Both the position numbers and the translations under genes were made by a program. The notes below the pieces were generated by a model. That model saw only the letters and a list, made by a program, of their open reading frames with translations. It made no database searches and had not been told where the DNA came from. From IMG/VR virus record IMGVR_UViG_3300037258_000374, positions 10,805 to 74,804 of that record: a DNA stretch of 64,000 nt, one strand, 5' to 3'. Positions 2,985-26,733 of this stretch are shown in pieces. The stretch is from a virus. Each line of letters starts with the position of its first letter. Position 1 is the first letter of the stretch.

Positions 2985-3228
2985 CGGCAGCCTTTCTGCT
3001 CATCGCTGCGTGAAGATCCGCGATCAAGCCGGCCGCGCCCTCGCCGCACTGGCATTCGTTGACGTGCTGGCCGATGAACGAGAGCTGCATCAGCCGAGCG
3101 TGCGCCGGCCACTTGTCCATGATGGCGGCGATGCCGGAGAAAAACTGCGCCTGCTCGTCGTCGGTCATCGCGCAGAACGACATCGCGAGTTCGGCTGGAG
3201 ATAGCTGGACATCGACCGTGACCTTCAT
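2977..3228 (-). CDS. Hypothetical protein
   Basis: ATG 3228 overlaps the upstream TGA; MKVTVDVQLSPAELAMSFC... Confidence 0.55.
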   Translation of the reverse strand: MKVTVDVQLSPAELAMSFCAMTDDEQAQFFSGIAAIMDKWPAHARLMQLSFIGQHVNECQCGEGAAGLIADLHAAMSRKAADA

Positions 3229-10617: not shown

Positions 10618-10891
10618 TCGCTCGCTCTACAGCTGGGTCATGTGCCACATGATTGCTGATACGCCGACCGAGCTCGTCGCAATGGCGGACCGCATCGGCG
10701 TCGCGCGCCGCTGGTTTCAGTCCAAGGCGAGCGCTCCGCACTTCGACATCGCGAAGTCGAAGCGCGAGCTCGCGGTCGCGGCCGGCGCGCTCGAGGTCGA
10801 TCGCGTGGCCTTCGTCGAAGTCGTCCGCCGCATCCGCACAACCTGGCCGCGCGCGAATGATGCGTGGCTCCTCACTGACTCGAAAGGATGA
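10601..10891 (+). CDS. DUF4031 family protein
   Basis: MSVYVD..MCHMIADTPTELVAMADRIGVARRWFQ..PHFDI..KRELAVAAGA. Confidence 0.8.
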   Translation: MSVYVDRSLYSWVMCHMIADTPTELVAMADRIGVARRWFQSKASAPHFDIAKSKRELAVAAGALEVDRVAFVEVVRRIRTTWPRANDAWLLTDSKG

Positions 10892-11363: not shown

Positions 11364-12416
11364 ATGAGTTACACGAAGCTGTTCGGCAGCATCATCGGAT
11401 CGACGATCTGGCGTCAGTCTCTCCACGTAAAGGTCGTGTGGATCACCATGCTCGCGATGAAAGATCAGGACGGCATCGTTGAGGTGTCGCTCCCCGGCCT
11501 TGCGCATCTTGCTGGTGTAACCCTGGAGCAGGCCACCGAAGCGATTCGTGATCTGATGGCGCCTGACCCCCATTCGAGCACCAAGGATCGCGAGGGTCGC
11601 CGCATCGAAGAGGTCGATGGCGGGTGGCGAGTTCTGAATCACTTCAAGTACCGGGACAAGGAAGACCAGGACGAGAGACGTCGCAAAGATGCGGAAAGAC
11701 AGCAAAGGAAGCGTGGGCGTGGGCGTCACGCCCTGTCACGGACAGTCACGGACAGTCACGGTGTGTCACGCGTGGTCACGCCATCAGATACAGATACAGA
11801 TCCGGAACAGGACTCTATATCGGTTCCGGATCGGGCCTTAAGCCCTTTCAAGCTTCCGGATCCGGATCGTGGGCCCCTGCGAGATCTAGTACAGGCGCCC
11901 CCTCCGGTTGATCGCTCCGCCGCGCGCGACTCCGGCCGCCGCATTCCAGCCGCTCCCGCGCTCCCAGCCGCGTCCGCAGGCCCGGACGCGCCGTTGCCGC
12001 CGGCAGCCCCGCGCACGGCAGCGCGGCTCGTGGCGCTCTTCGTGGAGCTCGTCAACGCGGCTCGCGCGCGGGTGGCCGAGCACCACCGCGTGCAGCTGCG
12101 GCCGATCTACGAGCAGGGGGTAGGAGCCCCCGAGTTGCTGGCGCGCATCCGAGGCGCGCCCGATCCCGAGGCCGAGGTAAGGCACGCGATAGCCGCCGCC
12201 GAGGCGCAGGCGATCAGGGACCCTGACGCGGCGCGCTGGCTGAGCTGGTCGATCGCGGAGCCGAAGGCATGGCGCGCGCATCTCGCCGCCGCGCCAGCGC
12301 GCACGCGCAGCAAAGCCGGACGAAGCGAGCCAGTCCGCCGCTCCGGTGCCGAGGCCTCCGCGGAGGCTGCCGAACTCGGTGTCGACATGAAATCCTACGG
12401 CGAGGAGGACGACTGA
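11364..12416 (+). CDS. Phage replication initiator protein
   Basis: GAGGAG SD; N-terminal YTKLFGSII.STIW...WITMLAMKDQDG...GRRIEEVDGGWRVLNH wHTH-type domain; internal iterons; followed by a DnaC-like gene. Confidence 0.8.
   Translation: MSYTKLFGSIIGSTIWRQSLHVKVVWITMLAMKDQDGIVEVSLPGLAHLAGVTLEQATEAIRDLMAPDPHSSTKDREGRRIEEVDGGWRVLNHFKYRDKEDQDERRRKDAERQQRKRGRGRHALSRTVTDSHGVSRVVTPSDTDTDPEQDSISVPDRALSPFKLPDPDRGPLRDLVQAPPPVDRSAARDSGRRIPAAPALPAASAGPDAPLPPAAPRTAARLVALFVELVNAARARVAEHHRVQLRPIYEQGVGAPELLARIRGAPDPEAEVRHAIAAAEAQAIRDPDAARWLSWSIAEPKAWRAHLAAAPARTRSKAGRSEPVRRSGAEASAEAAELGVDMKSYGEEDD
11725..11870 (+). repeat. Iteron array / probable replication origin
   Basis: Six GTCACG at exact 10-bp spacing (11725, 11735, 11745, 11755, 11765, 11775), then CAGATA repeats and several TCCGGA palindromes, all inside the initiator gene as in lambda O. 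Confidence 0.75.
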
Positions 12417-16530: not shown

Positions 16531-16979
16531 CCGAGCCGGCTCGCGAGGCAATCAACGCGGTTCGCCGCGCGCTGTCGGGCTACGTGTTCCAGGTCGACGA
16601 CGAGGCGAGCGTTCAGCGGCAAGTGCTCCAGGCGCTCGGCGAGCGCGGAGTCGAAGTGCTAGGCAGCGAAGTGATCGCGCGCGTGCCGGAGAAGCGCGAG
16701 CCCGCGCCTCCGCGGCTGCGTAACATGCCTGCACCGAAGGGTGGACGATACGACATCTTGGTGTGCCACGCCGGCGTGCGCCTCGTGCTGGAGTTGAAAG
16801 TCTCGGGCTCGGCGCCAGCCGTCGAGCGCCAGGCGCAGCGCTACGCCTTGACGCATGGGATCGATGCCGTGGCGCTGGTGACGACCTCCAACCGCCTCGC
16901 GCGCGGGGTCGCTGCGATCGAGGACGACGAGATGCTCGGCGGTAAGCCGTTCGGCGTCGTGCTCCTCCGGTGCTTCTGA
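16527..16979 (+). CDS. PD-(D/E)XK nuclease-like protein
   Basis: E..VQ, GRYDILV, LVLELKV, QAQRYA. Confidence 0.6.
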   Translation: MTEPAREAINAVRRALSGYVFQVDDEASVQRQVLQALGERGVEVLGSEVIARVPEKREPAPPRLRNMPAPKGGRYDILVCHAGVRLVLELKVSGSAPAVERQAQRYALTHGIDAVALVTTSNRLARGVAAIEDDEMLGGKPFGVVLLRCF

Positions 16980-18862
16980 TGCGGCCGGGCAGCATCTCGC
17001 TCGATGGCGCAGGCGACTTCGTCGTCCGCTGTCCGCCGCACGTCGCGATCAAGCTGCGGCGCGTGTTCGGCGGCGTGCAACGGCGCGGTGCCGGCTATTT
17101 CACTATCAGCGCGACGTCGGGCAATGCGTACGAGCTGCAGTGGTTCCGGCAGCGGTATCCGCTCGATCTGGAGCAGGACGCGGCCGACAGGTTCGAAGCT
17201 CTGCGCCTAGCCGAGGAGCATCGGCTCGCGTCGATCGCCGAGCTCGAGGCGGCCGACTACATCCCTCGGAAGTTCGATCTCGCGCTGCCGCCGCGCGAAT
17301 ACCAGCGCGTCGCGGCGGACCTCGCGCTGCGCACGGGCTCGCTGCTGGTCGCCGACGAACTCGGGCTCGGCAAGACGATCACCGCGATCTGCGCGCTGAC
17401 GGCGGAGGGCAAGCTGCCGGCGCTCGTCGTGACGATGACGCACCTGCCGAGGCAGTGGGAGGTTCAGCTGCAGAAGTTCGCGCCGTCGCTGCGCGCGCAT
17501 CGCATCCGCAAGGGAACGCCGTACGACTTCGCGAAGATCAAGTTCGAGACGGACGCGAGCGGCAAGCGCATGCGCATCCCGCGGCCGGGCATCCCAGACG
17601 TGATCATCTGCAACTACCACAAGCTGTGCGGATGGGCCGATACGCTCGCGCAGCTATGCAGGTCGGTCGTCTTCGACGAGGTCCAGGAGCTTCGGCACGC
17701 CGGGACGAACAAGTACATCGCGGCGCACGCGATCGCCGGCAGCGTCCCGCTCCGAATCGGGCTGTCGGCGACGCCGATCTACAACTACGGCGCCGAGATC
17801 TACTCGGTCGTCGAGGCGATCGCGCCCGGCGCGCTCGGCACGCGCAAGGAGTTCTACGACGAGTGGTGCGGCGGCGCGAACCCTGGCTCCGACCAGGACG
17901 CCCGGAAGGTCTGCGTCGCGGATCCGGTCGCGCTCGGCACGTATCTGCGCGAGTCCGGCCTCATGATCCGCCGCACGCGGAAGGAGGTCGGTCGCGAGCT
18001 GCCGCCGCTGACCATCGTGCGGCATGCGATCGAGGTCGACCCGGCGCGCATCAACGAAGCGACGGCGGACGTAGCCGAGCTCGCCTCGCGCGTGCTCGCG
18101 CGCACTGGCAGCAACTTCGAGCTGATGAAGTGGTCCGGCGAAATCGACTACCAGATGCGCCAGGCGACCGGCATCGGCAAGGCCGGCGCGGTGATCGACT
18201 TCGTGCGGATGCTCGTCGAGGCCGGTGAGCGCGTGGTGCTCTACGGCTGGCATCATGAGGTCTACGCGCTGTGGCGCTCGGCACTCGACAAGCACGGCAT
18301 CTCCTTCGCGATGTACACGGGCAGCGAGAGCGAGACGCAGAAGTCTGATAGCGTGCAGGCGTTCATCGATCACAAGGTCAACGTGCTGATCATCTCGCTG
18401 CGTGCTGGCGCCGGGCTCGACGGGCTGCAGCACGTCAGCCGCACGGTGGTGATCGGCGAGCTCGACTGGTCTCCGCAGGTCCATCAGCAGAACATCGGCC
18501 GCGTCTATCGCGATGGCCAGCTCGAGCCGTGCGTTGCGTACTACCTCGTCGCCGAGGAGGGCAGCGATCCGGTGATCGCCGACGTGCTCGGGCTGAAGGA
18601 TGCGCAGGCGACCGGCATCATCGATCCTGATCGCGCGGGCGTCGCGCATCTGGTCGGCTCCTCCGAGAGCCACGTGCGAAAGCTCGCCGTCGAAGTGCTG
18701 CGCCGGCGCGGTATCGAAGTGCCAGACGAACAAGACGACTGCTCGCAAGGCGATGATCGCGGCTGCAGCATGCACGGCGATCCCGGCAATTGCCCAGCGC
18801 CACCGGAGCCGTCGCTCGAACTGGCTCCGCAACTCGGCCTAGCGCTAGGGTCCTCGCGATGA
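16979..18862 (+). CDS. SNF2-family helicase/ATPase
   Basis: PREYQ, LLVADELGLGKT, VVFDEVQ, LSATPIYN, SLRAGAGLDGLQ, QNIGRVYRDGQ. Confidence 0.9.
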   Translation: MRPGSISLDGAGDFVVRCPPHVAIKLRRVFGGVQRRGAGYFTISATSGNAYELQWFRQRYPLDLEQDAADRFEALRLAEEHRLASIAELEAADYIPRKFDLALPPREYQRVAADLALRTGSLLVADELGLGKTITAICALTAEGKLPALVVTMTHLPRQWEVQLQKFAPSLRAHRIRKGTPYDFAKIKFETDASGKRMRIPRPGIPDVIICNYHKLCGWADTLAQLCRSVVFDEVQELRHAGTNKYIAAHAIAGSVPLRIGLSATPIYNYGAEIYSVVEAIAPGALGTRKEFYDEWCGGANPGSDQDARKVCVADPVALGTYLRESGLMIRRTRKEVGRELPPLTIVRHAIEVDPARINEATADVAELASRVLARTGSNFELMKWSGEIDYQMRQATGIGKAGAVIDFVRMLVEAGERVVLYGWHHEVYALWRSALDKHGISFAMYTGSESETQKSDSVQAFIDHKVNVLIISLRAGAGLDGLQHVSRTVVIGELDWSPQVHQQNIGRVYRDGQLEPCVAYYLVAEEGSDPVIADVLGLKDAQATGIIDPDRAGVAHLVGSSESHVRKLAVEVLRRRGIEVPDEQDDCSQGDDRGCSMHGDPGNCPAPPEPSLELAPQLGLALGSSR

Positions 18863-19428
18863 TCGCAGCGCTGATCCGGTGCCTCGCGCTCGCCGCCCGC
18901 GCCCATGCGGCGTGGCCGGAGTACTCGATCGCGGACGTAACCGCCGCATCCTGCGCGGCGGTTGGCGCCGCCGATCCGGGCGTCCCGGCCGAGCTCCTGC
19001 TCGCAATCGCGCAGCACGAGAGCGACCTGCATCCCAATGCGGTGAGCTGGGTCGCGACCAGCGGCCGAAGGGTGGATATCCTGTGGACGCGCGACCGCGC
19101 GCCGCCTGAAAACAAAGCGTTGGCATGCGGTTACGGGCAGACGATTGTCCACACCAGCCGCGCGTGCGCCGATGTGATCGCCGATCACGGTGGTCTCGTG
19201 ACCGCGGAGCACGAGCTCGCCGCGTGGCTGCGGTCGCCGCTGAGCGGCGGTTCTCTGCGTGTCGCGCTCGGCGGCTACGCCGGCGGGATCGCTGGCGCGC
19301 GCGCGGCGCGCGAGGGTATCGACGCTCTGGCGGTCCGCTTCGCCGATCTCTTCATCGCTCGCGCGAGACGGTTAACGATGCAGTCGGTGACTGTCATAGT
19401 AGGGTCCAATCAGTGGAGGAATCGATGA
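18859..19428 (+). CDS. Lytic transglycosylase (SLT)-like protein with N-terminal signal-like segment
   Basis: GVPAELLLAIAQHESDLHPNAVS (catalytic ES motif), ACGYGQ, ALGGYAGG. Confidence 0.6.
   Translation: MIAALIRCLALAARAHAAWPEYSIADVTAASCAAVGAADPGVPAELLLAIAQHESDLHPNAVSWVATSGRRVDILWTRDRAPPENKALACGYGQTIVHTSRACADVIADHGGLVTAEHELAAWLRSPLSGGSLRVALGGYAGGIAGARAAREGIDALAVRFADLFIARARRLTMQSVTVIVGSNQWRNR
19400..19405 (+). promoter_or_regulatory. -10 box (TAGGGT) upstream of the first pentamer unit
   Basis: Same hexamer that precedes many other genes in this genome; predicts a start near 19412, ahead of unit 1 and the Cas7-like gene. Confidence 0.5.
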
Positions 19429-19436
19429 TCTAACCG

Positions 19437-19506
19437 CACCCCGCACCGCGTCGCAGCGCAGCGCTGCGCCCCGCAGCACAGCGCAAAGCAGAGCCCTAAC
19501 GGGTCA
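19437..19506 (+). ncRNA. Putative guide-like RNA unit 1: (CGC-NN)x11 plus hairpin
   Basis: cacCC cgcAC cgcGT cgcAG cgcAG cgcTG cgcCC cgcAG cacAG cgcAA agcAG, then AGCCC-TAAC-GGGTCA. The repeat is seen directly; RNA function is inferred. Confidence 0.6.
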
Positions 19507-19583
19507 ATCGGCCAGCGAGTCCAGTACCGACATTATGTCCGTCAGCGACTCCAGCGCCCCAAACGACAGCAAGAGGAATCTCA

Positions 19584-20168
19584 ATGCAGACGGTACGCGC
19601 AGTTCTGAAATCCATCAGTCCCTATTCGCAGTCCAAGTATGTCGACAAAGACGAGCACCCCAAAAACGGCAAGGAGAGCGCCGACGACTACGAGAAGCGC
19701 ACGTGGCAAGCGCGAGTGCATCTCGACGACAAAGGCGCTCCGTACATGCCGCCGATGGCGCTGAAGAAGTCGCTCGACGCCGCGAGTGCCTACCTCGGGA
19801 AGATTCCCGGCGAGCGCAATGCGACCTACGTGAAGCGATTCAAGTCTGGGCTGCTCGTTACCGACAACATCCCGCTCCGATCGAACGGCAAGCCGGTCAC
19901 GAAGATCGACGACTTCGAGGGCGAGTGGCTATTTCTCGATGCTGGTGGCAAGGCCGGCCAAGGATCAACGCGCGTCAAACGCCGCATGCCTCGGCTCCGC
20001 GAGTGGGAGGTCACAGCAACGATCTATCTGATCGACGAGATCATCACACTCGATGTGCTGCGCCGCGCCCTCGAGGATGCCGGCCGCTTCGTCGGCGTCG
20101 GTCGCTTCCGCCCGCAGGTCGGAGGATTCTACGGTCGCTTCCTCGTCAAATCGCTGGAGGCGGTATGA
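19584..20168 (+). CDS. Stand-alone Cas7/RAMP-like protein
   Basis: AAGAGGA SD. N-terminal strand VRAVLKSISPY; PYMPPMALKKSL resembles the RAMP 'P.IPgsslKG.lR' motif; thumb-like GGKAGQGSTRVKRRMPRL; C-terminal Gly-rich loop AGRFVGVGRFRPQVGGFYGRF. Confidence 0.7.
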   Translation: MQTVRAVLKSISPYSQSKYVDKDEHPKNGKESADDYEKRTWQARVHLDDKGAPYMPPMALKKSLDAASAYLGKIPGERNATYVKRFKSGLLVTDNIPLRSNGKPVTKIDDFEGEWLFLDAGGKAGQGSTRVKRRMPRLREWEVTATIYLIDEIITLDVLRRALEDAGRFVGVGRFRPQVGGFYGRFLVKSLEAV

Positions 20169-20659
20169 CGTTCAAGAGCGGTCGCCGGCCGATCGAAATC
20201 GTTTCGAATCGTCAACCTCACAAGCTCGCGATCATCGCGCTCGTGGTCACGACCAAGCCAGGCGATATCATCCACGATCCAGAGATCGATCGCGCAACGA
20301 ACTCCACGCTACAGGTCTGGAGCAGCGCCATGCAGTCTGCTCGGCGCGTGCTCGCCGTGGAGCACGGCATCGAGCTCAAGCGCGAGACGAAGCTCGGATA
20401 TCGGCATCTCAAACCGGAAGAGAAGCCTGGCGCGGCAGATCGTCAAATGAACCGCGCGCGCAACCGCGTGAAGACCGCGAAGCGAATCGTCGATTCGATG
20501 ACACAGGGCCAGTTTGACGAGCTGACGCCAGCCAATCAGTCGGTGCACGTCCAGACCCGCGCGCGCGTGCTCTTGACGCATGACATGATGTCGCCCAAGC
20601 GTCAGCGCGAGATCGCGGTCGCGGCGAACTCGAAGGAGAGGCCGATGCTGCCCAAGTAG
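20165..20659 (+). CDS. Basic 164-aa protein coupled to the Cas7-like gene
   Basis: ATGA overlap with the Cas7-like stop; MTFKSGRRPIEIV...; wHTH-like first half (SARRVLAVEHGIELKRETKLGYR) followed by a helical half. Confidence 0.65.
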   Translation: MTFKSGRRPIEIVSNRQPHKLAIIALVVTTKPGDIIHDPEIDRATNSTLQVWSSAMQSARRVLAVEHGIELKRETKLGYRHLKPEEKPGAADRQMNRARNRVKTAKRIVDSMTQGQFDELTPANQSVHVQTRARVLLTHDMMSPKRQREIAVAANSKERPMLPK

Positions 20660-20670
20660 AATCGACGATG

Positions 20671-20811
20671 CGCAGCGCTTCGCCTCGCATCGCGTCGCTC
20701 CACAACGCACTGCAGAGCCCGCAAGGGTCACCAACGATTTCATCGCCACGCGGCGCGTCGCTCCGCATCGCGGCGCATCGCAACGCATCACAGAGCCCGC
20801 AAGGGTCACCA
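20671..20811 (+). ncRNA. Putative guide-like RNA units 2 and 3: (CGC-NN)x9 and x10, each plus hairpin
   Basis: Unit 2, 20671-20733: NN = AG TT CT AT GT TC AA AC AG. Unit 3, 20744-20811: NN = CA GG GT TC AT GG AT AA AT AG. Both end in the identical CAGAGCCCGCAAGGGTCACCA. Confidence 0.65.
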
Positions 20812-20847
20812 CGCAGCCGACGCCGACAATGAAGTATCGTCGGCGTC

Positions 20848-21294
20848 ATGAAACCGCCCGAAGAGCTGGTCGCAGCGTTCCGCGCGCTCGTCGACAAGGC
20901 GAGCGAAGGGATAGCGATGCTGCTGGTCGACAATGGATTCGACGCCGCGACGATGCGCGTGCTCGCGGCGTGGCCGCATCTCGAGCATGGGTGGGAGCAG
21001 CCGAAGCGGCCGTGCCCGAGCTCGATGCCCACGCCTGCCGCATGGCGCTGGCTTGTCAGCGGACACCGATACGAGGCGCAGCAACTCGCCGACGCCGCCG
21101 GCGTAACGATTGCGATCGCACGCGCGAAGGCCACGATGCTGCTCGGCGCTCGGCTCGCGCTGCCGGACGGGACGATCACGTCCAGCGCGAGCGCCGCTCT
21201 CGCAGCGCATGCACGGCGCGCGCTGGGGCTCAAGTCGAAGGCCAAGGACAAGCAGTCGCGCGGTCGAATCGCTAGCGATGACGATGCGAACTGA
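20848..21294 (+). CDS. Hypothetical protein
   Basis: 148 aa; TATCGT -10 lies 7 nt upstream of the ATG. Confidence 0.55.
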   Translation: MKPPEELVAAFRALVDKASEGIAMLLVDNGFDAATMRVLAAWPHLEHGWEQPKRPCPSSMPTPAAWRWLVSGHRYEAQQLADAAGVTIAIARAKATMLLGARLALPDGTITSSASAALAAHARRALGLKSKAKDKQSRGRIASDDDAN

Positions 21295-25058: not shown

Positions 25059-25124
25059 GTCACGCGATGTCACGCGATGTCACGCGATGTCACGCGATGT
25101 CACGCGACGTCACGCGACGTCACG
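25059..25124 (+). repeat. Intergenic 10-bp tandem repeat (GTCACGCGAY) with 7 GTCACG cores
   Basis: GTCACG at 25059, 25069, 25079, 25089, 25099, 25109 and 25119. Confidence 0.9.
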
Positions 25125-25252
25125 CCCGTTCCGAACAGGGCTGCGTCCGGCCTCCGCGCTGCTGCGTCGGTCCTGACCTCGCTCCGTAAGTTCGCGATTC
25201 CTCGTTCGTGGTAGGGTCAGGATATCCGGACCAAGCCGGGTCAGCCGTGTCG

Positions 25253-25731: not shown

Positions 25732-26733
25732 ATGAAGACCCAGCACAACGACATCCCGGCCAAGGCGAAGGTCAACTTCGACCTCGCGCTCGTGAAGCTC
25801 TACAGCGGCAGCCACGGCAACGACATCCCGAGCGGTCCAGACGACTGCGCGGTGTGCTTCAACGAGCTCGTCTCGCTGTTGCCCGGTGGTCATTCGAAGC
25901 CCGAGATGACGGACCGCCCGGACAGCGAATGTCCGGCTCTCAACGAGTTCACGATCTGGCTGAATGATCGCTGGTCCGACGAGGACCGCCAGAAGCTGAT
26001 CCAGTTCGCCAACCTCGTGATCGGGACGCGTGGCTCGGACGCGTTGACGAAGGCGCGCCGCGAGTTCCTCGCCGATGGCTCGCTCAAGATCTTCGCCCAG
26101 TTCTTCCGCGAGCTGCCCGGCGCGCCCCAGAACGACGTAGCCGACCGCATCGCGAACCTGCCGTTCAACGATCGCGCGGCGCTACTCCGCATCTTGTACG
26201 ATCAGACGAACGAGGCCATCCGCGTGTCACTGCCCAAGCTGCTCCGCGAGCTCGCGCACAAGCCTCGTCCCGACATCGCTGTGCGGCTCGAAGCGCTCGC
26301 GCCGATCATCGACCTCAATACCGCGCGCCTCGCGCGAGATCTTGTTTGGCGTATCAGGGACGAGAACGGTTGGTACGGCTGGACGTGGCGATCGCTGATC
26401 AGGAAGGCGGTCGAGGCGGTCGAGGCGGGCGCGGCGGGCGCGGCGGTCGCGGCGGGCGCGGCGGTCGCGGCGGTCGCGGCGGTCGCGGCGGTCGCGGCGG
26501 TCGCGGCGGTCGAGGCGGGCGCGGCGGTCGAGGCGGTCGCGGCGGTCGCGGCGGTCGCGGCGGTCGCGGCGGTCGAGGCGGGCGCGGCGGTCGAGGCGGT
26601 CGCGGCGGTCGCGGCGGTCGAGGCGGTCGAGGAAGATCTTGCGCCGAAGTATCGCGAGCTGCAGCAGCGCACCGTCGAGCGCACGCTCGCGCTGTTCAAG
26701 GCGGCGATCGAAATCCAAGAGCCGCCCCAATGA
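25732..26733 (+). CDS. Hypothetical phage protein with Ala/Val-rich repeat
   Basis: N-terminal GSH...CFNELVS...DRP..CPAL..F.IWLND..SDEDRQKL..LVIGTRG; leaderless -10. Confidence 0.7.
   Translation: MKTQHNDIPAKAKVNFDLALVKLYSGSHGNDIPSGPDDCAVCFNELVSLLPGGHSKPEMTDRPDSECPALNEFTIWLNDRWSDEDRQKLIQFANLVIGTRGSDALTKARREFLADGSLKIFAQFFRELPGAPQNDVADRIANLPFNDRAALLRILYDQTNEAIRVSLPKLLRELAHKPRPDIAVRLEALAPIIDLNTARLARDLVWRIRDENGWYGWTWRSLIRKAVEAVEAGAAGAAVAAGAAVAAVAAVAAVAAVAAVEAGAAVEAVAAVAAVAAVAAVEAGAAVEAVAAVAAVEAVEEDLAPKYRELQQRTVERTLALFKAAIEIQEPPQ
26407..26631 (+). repeat. 9-bp coding tandem repeat (GCGGTCGCG/GCGGTCGAG/GCGGGCGCG) encoding AVA/AVE/AGA
   Basis: About 25 units seen directly. Confidence 0.9.

Follow-up and report, generated by a model that had tools for sequence, protein, structure and literature searches.

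A probable VIPR system with CGC-NN guide tracts in a complete soil phage genome

The stretch of DNA considered here (hereafter the window, meaning all 64,000 nucleotides analysed) covers positions 10,805 to 74,804 of the IMG/VR virus record IMGVR_UViG_3300037258_000374, and carries a cassette of two genes and three tracts of pentamer repeats that is very probably a VIPR (Viral Interference Programmable Repeat) system with guides of the form CGC-NN. VIPR systems, a class of RNA-guided silencers of DNA, entered the literature in 2026 (bioRxiv 10.64898/2026.04.26.720920 and.720927). In the system of Escherichia phage SUSP1, one Vipr protomer is bound to each repeat with the GGY bases flipped out and held, the NN positions pair with double-stranded DNA such that every third target base is skipped, and competing elements are transcriptionally silenced as the outcome (10.64898/2026.04.26.720920 and.720927). 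As judged from sequence, every testable defining feature of VIPR appears to be present in the window with the exception of the canonical GGY triplet.

The cassette lies entirely on the plus strand in the order unit 1, vipr, vap, unit 2 and unit 3, and its principal elements are as follows:
19437-19491, plus strand: vrRNA1 repeat tract (unit 1), 11 pentamers, NN = CC AC GT AG AG TG CC AG AG AA AG
19489-19506, plus strand: vrRNA1 3′ tail, CAGAGCCC-TAAC-GGGTCA, with a 4-bp GCCC/GGGU hairpin
19584-20168, plus strand: vipr, encoding a Vipr-family RAMP protein of 194 amino acids (RRM core, thumb at about residues 120-130, G-loop at residues 171-186)
20165-20659, plus strand: vap, encoding an accessory protein of 164 amino acids (predicted winged helix at about residues 17-81, helical bundle at residues 84-155)
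20671-20715, plus strand: vrRNA2 repeat tract (unit 2), 9 pentamers, NN = AG TT CT AT GT TC AA AC AG
20713-20730, plus strand: vrRNA2 3′ tail, CAGAGCCC-GCAA-GGGTCA
20744-20793, plus strand: vrRNA3 repeat tract (unit 3), 10 pentamers, NN = CA GG GT TC AT GG AT AA AT AG
20791-20808, plus strand: vrRNA3 3′ tail, CAGAGCCC-GCAA-GGGTCA

Over the 30 pentamers the scaffold was found to read CGC in 24, CAC in four, and AGC and TGC in one each. Position 1 is C in 28/30 pentamers, position 2 is G in 26/30 and A in the other 4/30, and position 3 is C in 30/30, with entropies of 0.42, 0.57 and 0.00 bits, respectively, compared with 1.67 and 1.90 bits at the two NN positions. Each of the three units is hence a run of tandem pentamers in which three positions are conserved and two hypervariable, and all flank vipr and share its strand; the guide RNA genes of VIPR (vrRNAs) are defined by this form, with 9-16 repeats. 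In the 64 kb scanned on both strands, a density of at least six of nine in-phase CGC triplets was observed only at these three tracts, the peak being 9/9, and none of 100 composition-matched sequences drawn at random from a first-order Markov model went above seven of nine. A motif-agnostic periodicity scan recovered the same three tracts, in addition to an unrelated 10-bp iteron-like repeat at 25059-25125.

The structured 3′ tail expected of a vrRNA is likewise present, with a constant stem and a varying loop (TAAC and GCAA here; GAAA in the related loci L044/L180). The pattern CAGAGCCC-NNNN-GGGTCA has exactly three matches in the window, one per unit, and the final pentamer of each unit, AGCCC, doubles as the 5′ arm of the tail hairpin. 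Searching IMG/VR with the tail pattern CAGAGCCCNNNNGGGTCA uncovered real vrRNAs in one other contig only (L180, which is the contig of L044), the other 90 matches being without preceding repeats, and a search of Rfam returned no family and no hammerhead. An earlier note, made from the letters of this DNA, had described the same order of genes and units behind a -10 box, units of 9 to 11 CGC-NN pentamers with NN free, and the shared ending; the two genes, the tracts of 11, 9 and 10 pentamers and the three endings were all recovered where it had placed them, the -10 box being a candidate hexamer read by eye only.

The 194-residue protein is, on sequence comparison, a homologue of the described Vipr proteins, including the solved SUSP1 Vipr. 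The PDB chain 36pp_D, “SUSP1 Vipr protein”, was matched by phmmer with an E value of 4.5e-5 using the single sequence and of 9e-10 using a profile of 38 homologues. Alignment with hhalign to the Vipr of Felixounavirus wV8 (of the SUSP1 clade) yielded a probability of 97.4% and an E value of 1e-11 over 168 columns, and to that of Pseudomonas phage LESphi2 a probability of 98.9% and an E value of 2.4e-17; identity to the LESphi2 protein is only about 29%, and the detectable likeness to the SUSP1 and wV8 proteins lies mainly in the C-terminal 60 residues. The closest metagenomic homologues are 78-84% identical, and the nearest solved folds apart from Vipr are Csm3 and type VII Cas7. Neither the 194-residue nor the 164-residue protein has a match in Pfam or PADLOC. 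Both the RAMP/Cas7-type landmarks that the earlier note had read in this protein (an RRM core, thumb and G-loop in a homologue of 36pp) and its mention of a phage system termed VIPR were borne out, the latter being the subject of bioRxiv 10.64898/2026.04.26.720920 and.720927.

The start of vap overlaps the stop of vipr by ATGA, in the manner of a two-gene operon. An AlphaFold2 model of the 164-residue product (pLDDT, the model's predicted local distance difference test, of 91) consists of an N-terminal winged helix and a C-terminal helical bundle, with weak but consistent fold matches to the DNA-binding domains of ScpB, MarR and OmpR type. Members of a diverged family of such Vaps, 160-175 residues long and including that of the window, adjoin vipr in 69 out of 105 related loci, irrespective of scaffold, and the family profile finds the gene that follows vipr in LESphi2 (hhalign, 93.8%, E value of 1.7e-7). 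The Vaps of types II, VI and VII have been described as predicted DNA-binding proteins, and the function of SUSP1 VIPR was reported to need Vap1 (10.64898/2026.04.26.720920 and.720927); the modelled winged helix and the partner-gene matches agree with these descriptions.

The minimal locus of a VIPR system, namely vipr with vap and without a CRISPR array or other cas genes, is also what the sequence holds: no Cas1 match, no match to the Pfam RAMPs family and no repeat-spacer array were found in the whole 74.8-kb record, cas2, cas5 and cas6 not having been searched by profiles of their own. The repeat-spacer array and cas operon by which a class 1 effector is recognised were accordingly not found within the same scope. 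The assertion in the earlier note that CRISPR machinery is missing stands for Cas1 and the array, and for cas2, cas5 and cas6 it carries the limit just given.

For comparison, 105 loci with Vipr homologues (L001-L105) were gathered from genomes, IMG/VR and metagenomes. Tracts with a 5-nt period flank vipr on the vipr strand in about 90 of them, and the maximum base frequency is 0.75-0.95 in the three fixed columns of these tracts against about 0.3-0.5 in the two free ones, such that co-occurrence with the homologues and variation of NN upon a held scaffold, both of which the earlier note had put forward as checks, were each observed. The closest relative with genomic context, L044 (67% identity), is the sister of the window's Vipr with full support, and carries four units downstream in which the CGC scaffold and the tail stem are unchanged and the NN entirely different. 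Among the 74 loci that could be typed with confidence, CGC is the commonest scaffold (25/74), followed by GGC (19/74), GAC (13/74), CTC (6/74), CAC (3/74) and GTC (2/74), with GTT, CGT, CGA, GAT, GCA and ATT at 1/74 each. On the strand of vipr the tracts of GGC-type members spell G-G-C, which fixes the RNA strand for the family. On the protein tree, which is poorly resolved, sister pairs of a CGC and a GGC system recur, and at least 27 changes of the fixed triplet are needed to account for the 69 proteins.

The skip rule was examined by cutting all tracts into 2,458 eight-repeat sub-guides and seeking exact matches on both strands of 2.9 Mb of loci. In other loci, 14 such matches were obtained with one base skipped, one with no skip and none with two bases skipped. 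Eight of the 14 were removed, four being circular (loci that had been fetched with that very pattern) and four of low complexity, leaving six matches with one base skipped from four guides (in L028, L052, L053 and L104), all of CGC type. In the L028 guide (L028:4589-4650, from a Rhodospirillales metagenome-assembled genome), 10-11 consecutive NN pairs, amounting to at least 20 nt, match the vipr genes of L083 (797-830) and L015 (4475-4510), where they fall on the codons for the G-loop peptide FRPRNNGYYG of the rival protein and spell the first two letters of each codon. In the vipr of L028 itself this peptide is written with its arginine codons swapped (AGG/CGG), and the gene escapes the L028 guide because of this recoding. 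Guides that target vipr genes have been reported for the SUSP1 family (10.64898/2026.04.26.720920 and.720927). The guides of the sister viral contigs L052 and L053 match one and the same SNF2-family helicase gene (L091:1733-3292), which adjoins vipr, at 2666-2700 and 3047-3085 and on opposite strands, the L053 guide agreeing at 25 of 26 NN positions. With three of these guides (L028, L052 and L053) the base passed over coincides with the codon wobble position. Taken together, these matches support the use of the published one-nucleotide-skip code on DNA by the CGC-type VIPR systems of relatives.

By homology with SUSP1, the cassette in the window would encode Vipr, a winged-helix Vap and three vrRNAs of about 65-75 nt, the first preceding vipr and the other two following vap, each capped at its 3′ end by the GCCC-NNNN-GGGU hairpin. 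Each pentamer would be bound by one Vipr protomer, with C-G-C sequestered and NN presented, and the resulting filament would read double-stranded DNA discontinuously, two bases being paired and one skipped, leading to transcriptional silencing of the bound gene. We infer by analogy with the published systems that the three units are transcribed and loaded onto Vipr with repression as the outcome, the most likely targets being the genes of some rival element in the same host (a phage, prophage or satellite).

A ribonucleoprotein that targets RNA instead of DNA, in the manner of type III or type VII Cas7 filaments, could be proposed on the grounds that the closest solved folds other than Vipr, Csm3 and type VII Cas7, line RNA-targeting complexes. 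This proposal is very improbable, given that two of the relatives' CGC-type guides (those of L028 and L053) have the mRNA sense of their targets and can consequently pair only with template-strand DNA, that two guides match one gene on opposite strands, that SUSP1 Vipr binds double-stranded DNA (10.64898/2026.04.26.720920 and.720927), and that no nuclease or Cas10-like partner is present. It is scarcely credible, in turn, that the pentamer tracts act as DNA, whether as protein-binding sites or as iterons for the winged-helix partner. The predicted DNA-binding fold of that partner and the presence in this phage of other short tandem repeats as iteron-like sites would suit such a role, but in binding sites conservation would be expected across all five positions of the unit, without freedom at two of them. 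The tracts moreover keep to the strand of vipr in about 90 loci and close with a conserved hairpin, matches to foreign genes in a 3-nt register exist for NN strings of relatives, and the homologous tracts of SUSP1 are transcribed and protein-bound (10.64898/2026.04.26.720920 and.720927).

Several observations nevertheless weigh against assigning the locus to VIPR. The scaffold is C-G-C (CGC in 24/30 pentamers, the others CAC, AGC or TGC) in place of the experimentally validated G-G-Y, and the canonical YNNGG form was not found. Three of the four residues with which SUSP1 Vipr reads G1 and G2 (H17, D177 and R138) are replaced. The tail is a simple 4-bp tetraloop hairpin with no pseudoknot evident, unlike SUSP1, in which it forms a pseudoknot of about 40 nt, and the Vap profile has only a weak link to wV8 gp095 (77%). 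Consensus scans for sigma-70 promoters and terminators called neither a promoter nor a terminator for the three units, and the sole public sequencing run with the locus is a soil DNA metagenome, the locus being known from DNA only. Last, searches of the phage, IMG/VR and about 2.7 Mb of related loci brought to light no natural target for the three guides of the window.

The target searches behind this last point were as follows. Exact NNx searches of IMG/VR with the first guide (vr1) returned no matches at 20 or at 18 specified bases; with the second (vr2), two matches at 18 specified bases were returned, in contigs of about 40% GC, and were judged to be chance; and with the third (vr3), none was returned at 18 specified bases and seven at 16, all in contigs of 37-52% GC and again judged to be chance. 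With mismatches allowed, the window guides scored equal to shuffled controls against the about 2.7 Mb of related loci, and, rendered as degenerate peptides against the six-frame translation of the phage, gave nothing above shuffles. In the 74.8-kb genome itself, self-targets with a skip of 0, 1 or 2 were no better than with shuffled guides, and an absence of self-targets is likewise reported by the VIPR paper for its systems (10.64898/2026.04.26.720920). The guides of relatives searched against this phage gave nothing above the skip-0 and skip-2 controls. The suggestion of the earlier note that NN spells a discontinuous target was accordingly upheld through the natural targets of CGC-type guides in relatives, and was left without a target for this phage's own three guides.

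The missing rival-phage target would also be accounted for by a working VIPR system aimed at the host, for instance at defence or regulatory genes, or at regulation of the phage's own genes. This is rather unlikely: no self-target rose above shuffled controls in the phage, the identified targets of the relatives' CGC-type guides are the vipr and SNF2 helicase genes of rival VIPR-bearing elements, and satellites and prophages make up most of the natural targets in the literature (10.64898/2026.04.26.720920 and.720927). The same lack of a target, together with a locus known from DNA only and several degenerate pentamers (CAC, AGC and TGC), could be taken to indicate a decayed or idle remnant whose guides have ceased to be loaded or have outlived their targets. 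Such decay is improbable in view of the intact state of both open reading frames, the invariant C at scaffold position 3 (30/30 pentamers), the near-identity of the three tails and the completeness of the phage genome; Vipr also retains all 24 columns that are invariant in the family alignment, though by construction of the comparison with this protein, and functional vrRNAs are described as often containing degenerate units (10.64898/2026.04.26.720920).

The manner in which this Vipr might read its scaffold was considered by mapping the SUSP1 contact residues onto the window protein through sequence alignments. The three residues that read G1/G2 in SUSP1 correspond here to S17 (SUSP1 H17), M135 (R138) and R174 (D177). 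The stacking aromatic of the G-loop is kept as F175 (W178), as is the Y3-pocket arginine as R176 (R179), and E71/M72 become M58/A59. H17, R138 and D177 are kept by SUSP1, wV8 and LESphi2, and are replaced throughout the clade of the window (S17, M/F135 and R174). Since three of the four G1/G2 contact residues are replaced, the reading of CGC by this Vipr is extrapolated from SUSP1. Within the related loci, R174 accompanies G at scaffold position 2 in 42/43 cases, with F, S, T or Q where that base is A or T, and V118-P119 occurs with G at position 1 in 17/17 GGC loci, L/A-N going with C (among 24 CGC loci, V118 is found in 1 and P119 in 4). A phylogenetically independent-pairs test of these links was underpowered, there being only one or two pairs on supported branches, and the links of R174 and V118-P119 with the scaffold are to be taken as leads and not as findings. 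The replacement of D177 by R174 was also entertained as the cause of the change from G1 to C1, and was rejected upon observing that members of the clade with a GGC scaffold also carry R174, the residue tracking base 2.

It is possible, albeit doubtful, that scaffold identity is a fast-evolving “lock” which makes co-infecting VIPR systems orthogonal, a notion drawn from the triplet having changed at least 27 times, its tracking of few residues and the loss of the H17/D177/R138 triad from the clade. Were this so, the CGC system would be a natural, separately addressable Vipr/vrRNA pair, and scaffold switching would offer an escape from the “solo” or decoy vrRNAs of rivals that borrow a Vipr in trans. 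The natural variants of the clade make scaffold recognition testable.

The remaining signals of the cassette and its borders are listed below:
19400-19405, plus strand: candidate -10 hexamer TAGGGT for vrRNA1, read by eye, with the alternative CATAGT at 19395-19400
19420-19429, plus strand: leader motif AATCGATGAT, 5′ of unit 1
19432, plus strand: degenerate AACCG just before the unit 1 tract
20657-20662, plus strand: candidate -10 hexamer TAGAAT before unit 2, read by eye
20660-20669, plus strand: leader motif AATCGACGAT, 5′ of unit 2
20666-20670, plus strand: degenerate pentamer CGATG just before the unit 2 tract
20819-20847, plus strand: closing hairpin with a 9-bp GC-rich stem (fold of 20740-20850, z = -1.9)

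The motif AATCGAYGAT is common to the 5′ sides of units 1 and 2 and is a candidate signal for transcript initiation or processing; unit 3 is preceded by ...AACGATTTCAT, and in L044 every unit is preceded by AAAGATTTGG. The hairpin at 20819-20847 directly follows unit 3 and abuts the ATG (20848) of the next open reading frame. It is without a T-run and was not called by the terminator scan, and may end the transcripts of the cassette as a candidate terminator. The open reading frame that follows (20848-21294, 148 amino acids) bears a faint hint of a TetR-type helix-turn-helix.

The record as a whole spans 74,804 bp with direct terminal repeats, is rated 100% complete by CheckV and originates from soil, with a GC content of 65%. 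It is a complete, terminally redundant soil phage with the VIPR cassette in its early region, and its TerL is only about 30% identical to those of known phages. Just upstream of the cassette, at 16970-18862, lies a gene for an SNF2-family helicase of 630 amino acids, for which the best PADLOC matches are DpdE and ZorD-type helicases. It belongs to the same family as the VIPR-targeted helicase of L091, and no match of any relative's guide to it was found. The iteron-like repeat at 25059-25125 is a tandem GTCACGCGAT repeat of 6.7 copies with a 10-bp period, unrelated to the pentamer guides, and related GTCACG repeats occur about 13 kb away at 11720-11781. A 9-bp unit, GGCGGTCGC, is present in about 25 tandem copies (91% matches) at 26406-26629, overlapping a plus-strand open reading frame (25732-26733), and this region would be one of tripeptide repeats if that frame is a real gene.

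With respect to known systems, the locus is most like type II VIPR (Escherichia phage SUSP1 and Felixounavirus wV8, with the Pseudomonas fulva clade; PDB 36pp). The features held in common are a single Vipr RAMP of about 195 residues with thumb and G-loop; a small accessory gene, adjacent to or overlapping vipr, whose product is predicted to have a DNA-binding fold; the order vrRNA, vipr, vap and vrRNA array (as in wV8, and in SUSP1 as described); guides of 9-12 pentamers, each with two free letters and three fixed ones of which the third is a pyrimidine, followed by a constant 3′ tail; carriage by a phage without cas genes or a CRISPR array; and the one-nucleotide-skip rule with a wobble skip, seen in the CGC-type relatives of the window system. 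By contrast, the class 1 CRISPR backbones built from Cas7 (Csm3 of type III-A and Cas7 of type VII) differ from the present locus in every one of the following respects: here there is no array, no Cas1/2/5/6/10 and no large or small subunit (with the limit on cas2, cas5 and cas6 given above); the period is 5 nt and not 6 nt; the guide information is discontinuous, at two of every five nucleotides; the target, by analogy with SUSP1, would be double-stranded DNA in a 3-nt register; and the guides are hard-coded in the genome and not acquired.

Departures from GGY have themselves been published. Alternative repeats NNNGG, YNNNG and NNNNG are listed in the Methods of 10.64898/2026.04.26.720920, and a preprint of October 2026 described 21 clusters of non-canonical cores (GAC, CAC, WGT and TGH among them) beside Vipr-like folds (10.64898/2026.10.21.760802). 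The present locus resembles these arrays (10.64898/2026.04.26.720920; 10.64898/2026.10.21.760802) in its 5-nt period, fixed non-GGY trinucleotide, roughly ten repeats and adjoining Vipr-like fold, and C-NN-C-G fits the YNNNG pattern (10.64898/2026.04.26.720920). CGC/NN is not named in the text of the VIPR preprints, and may appear in their figures or tables. As CGC fits both YNNNG and the class of non-canonical cores, GGY is to be regarded as typical of the VIPR family and not as defining it. The earlier note had set CGC-NN apart as a variant different from GGY-NN; the scaffold does differ, but non-canonical scaffolds of this kind had already been reported. The locus is accordingly no new kind of system, VIPR and its non-canonical scaffolds being already published. 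It offers instead an example of VIPR in a complete genome with C-G-C guides in place of G-G-Y, from a branch of Vipr in which CGC is a common scaffold and the CGC guides of relatives obey the published code of two bases read and one skipped, and its scaffold diversity serves as a pointer towards orthogonal Vipr/guide pairs for multiplexed programmable DNA binding.

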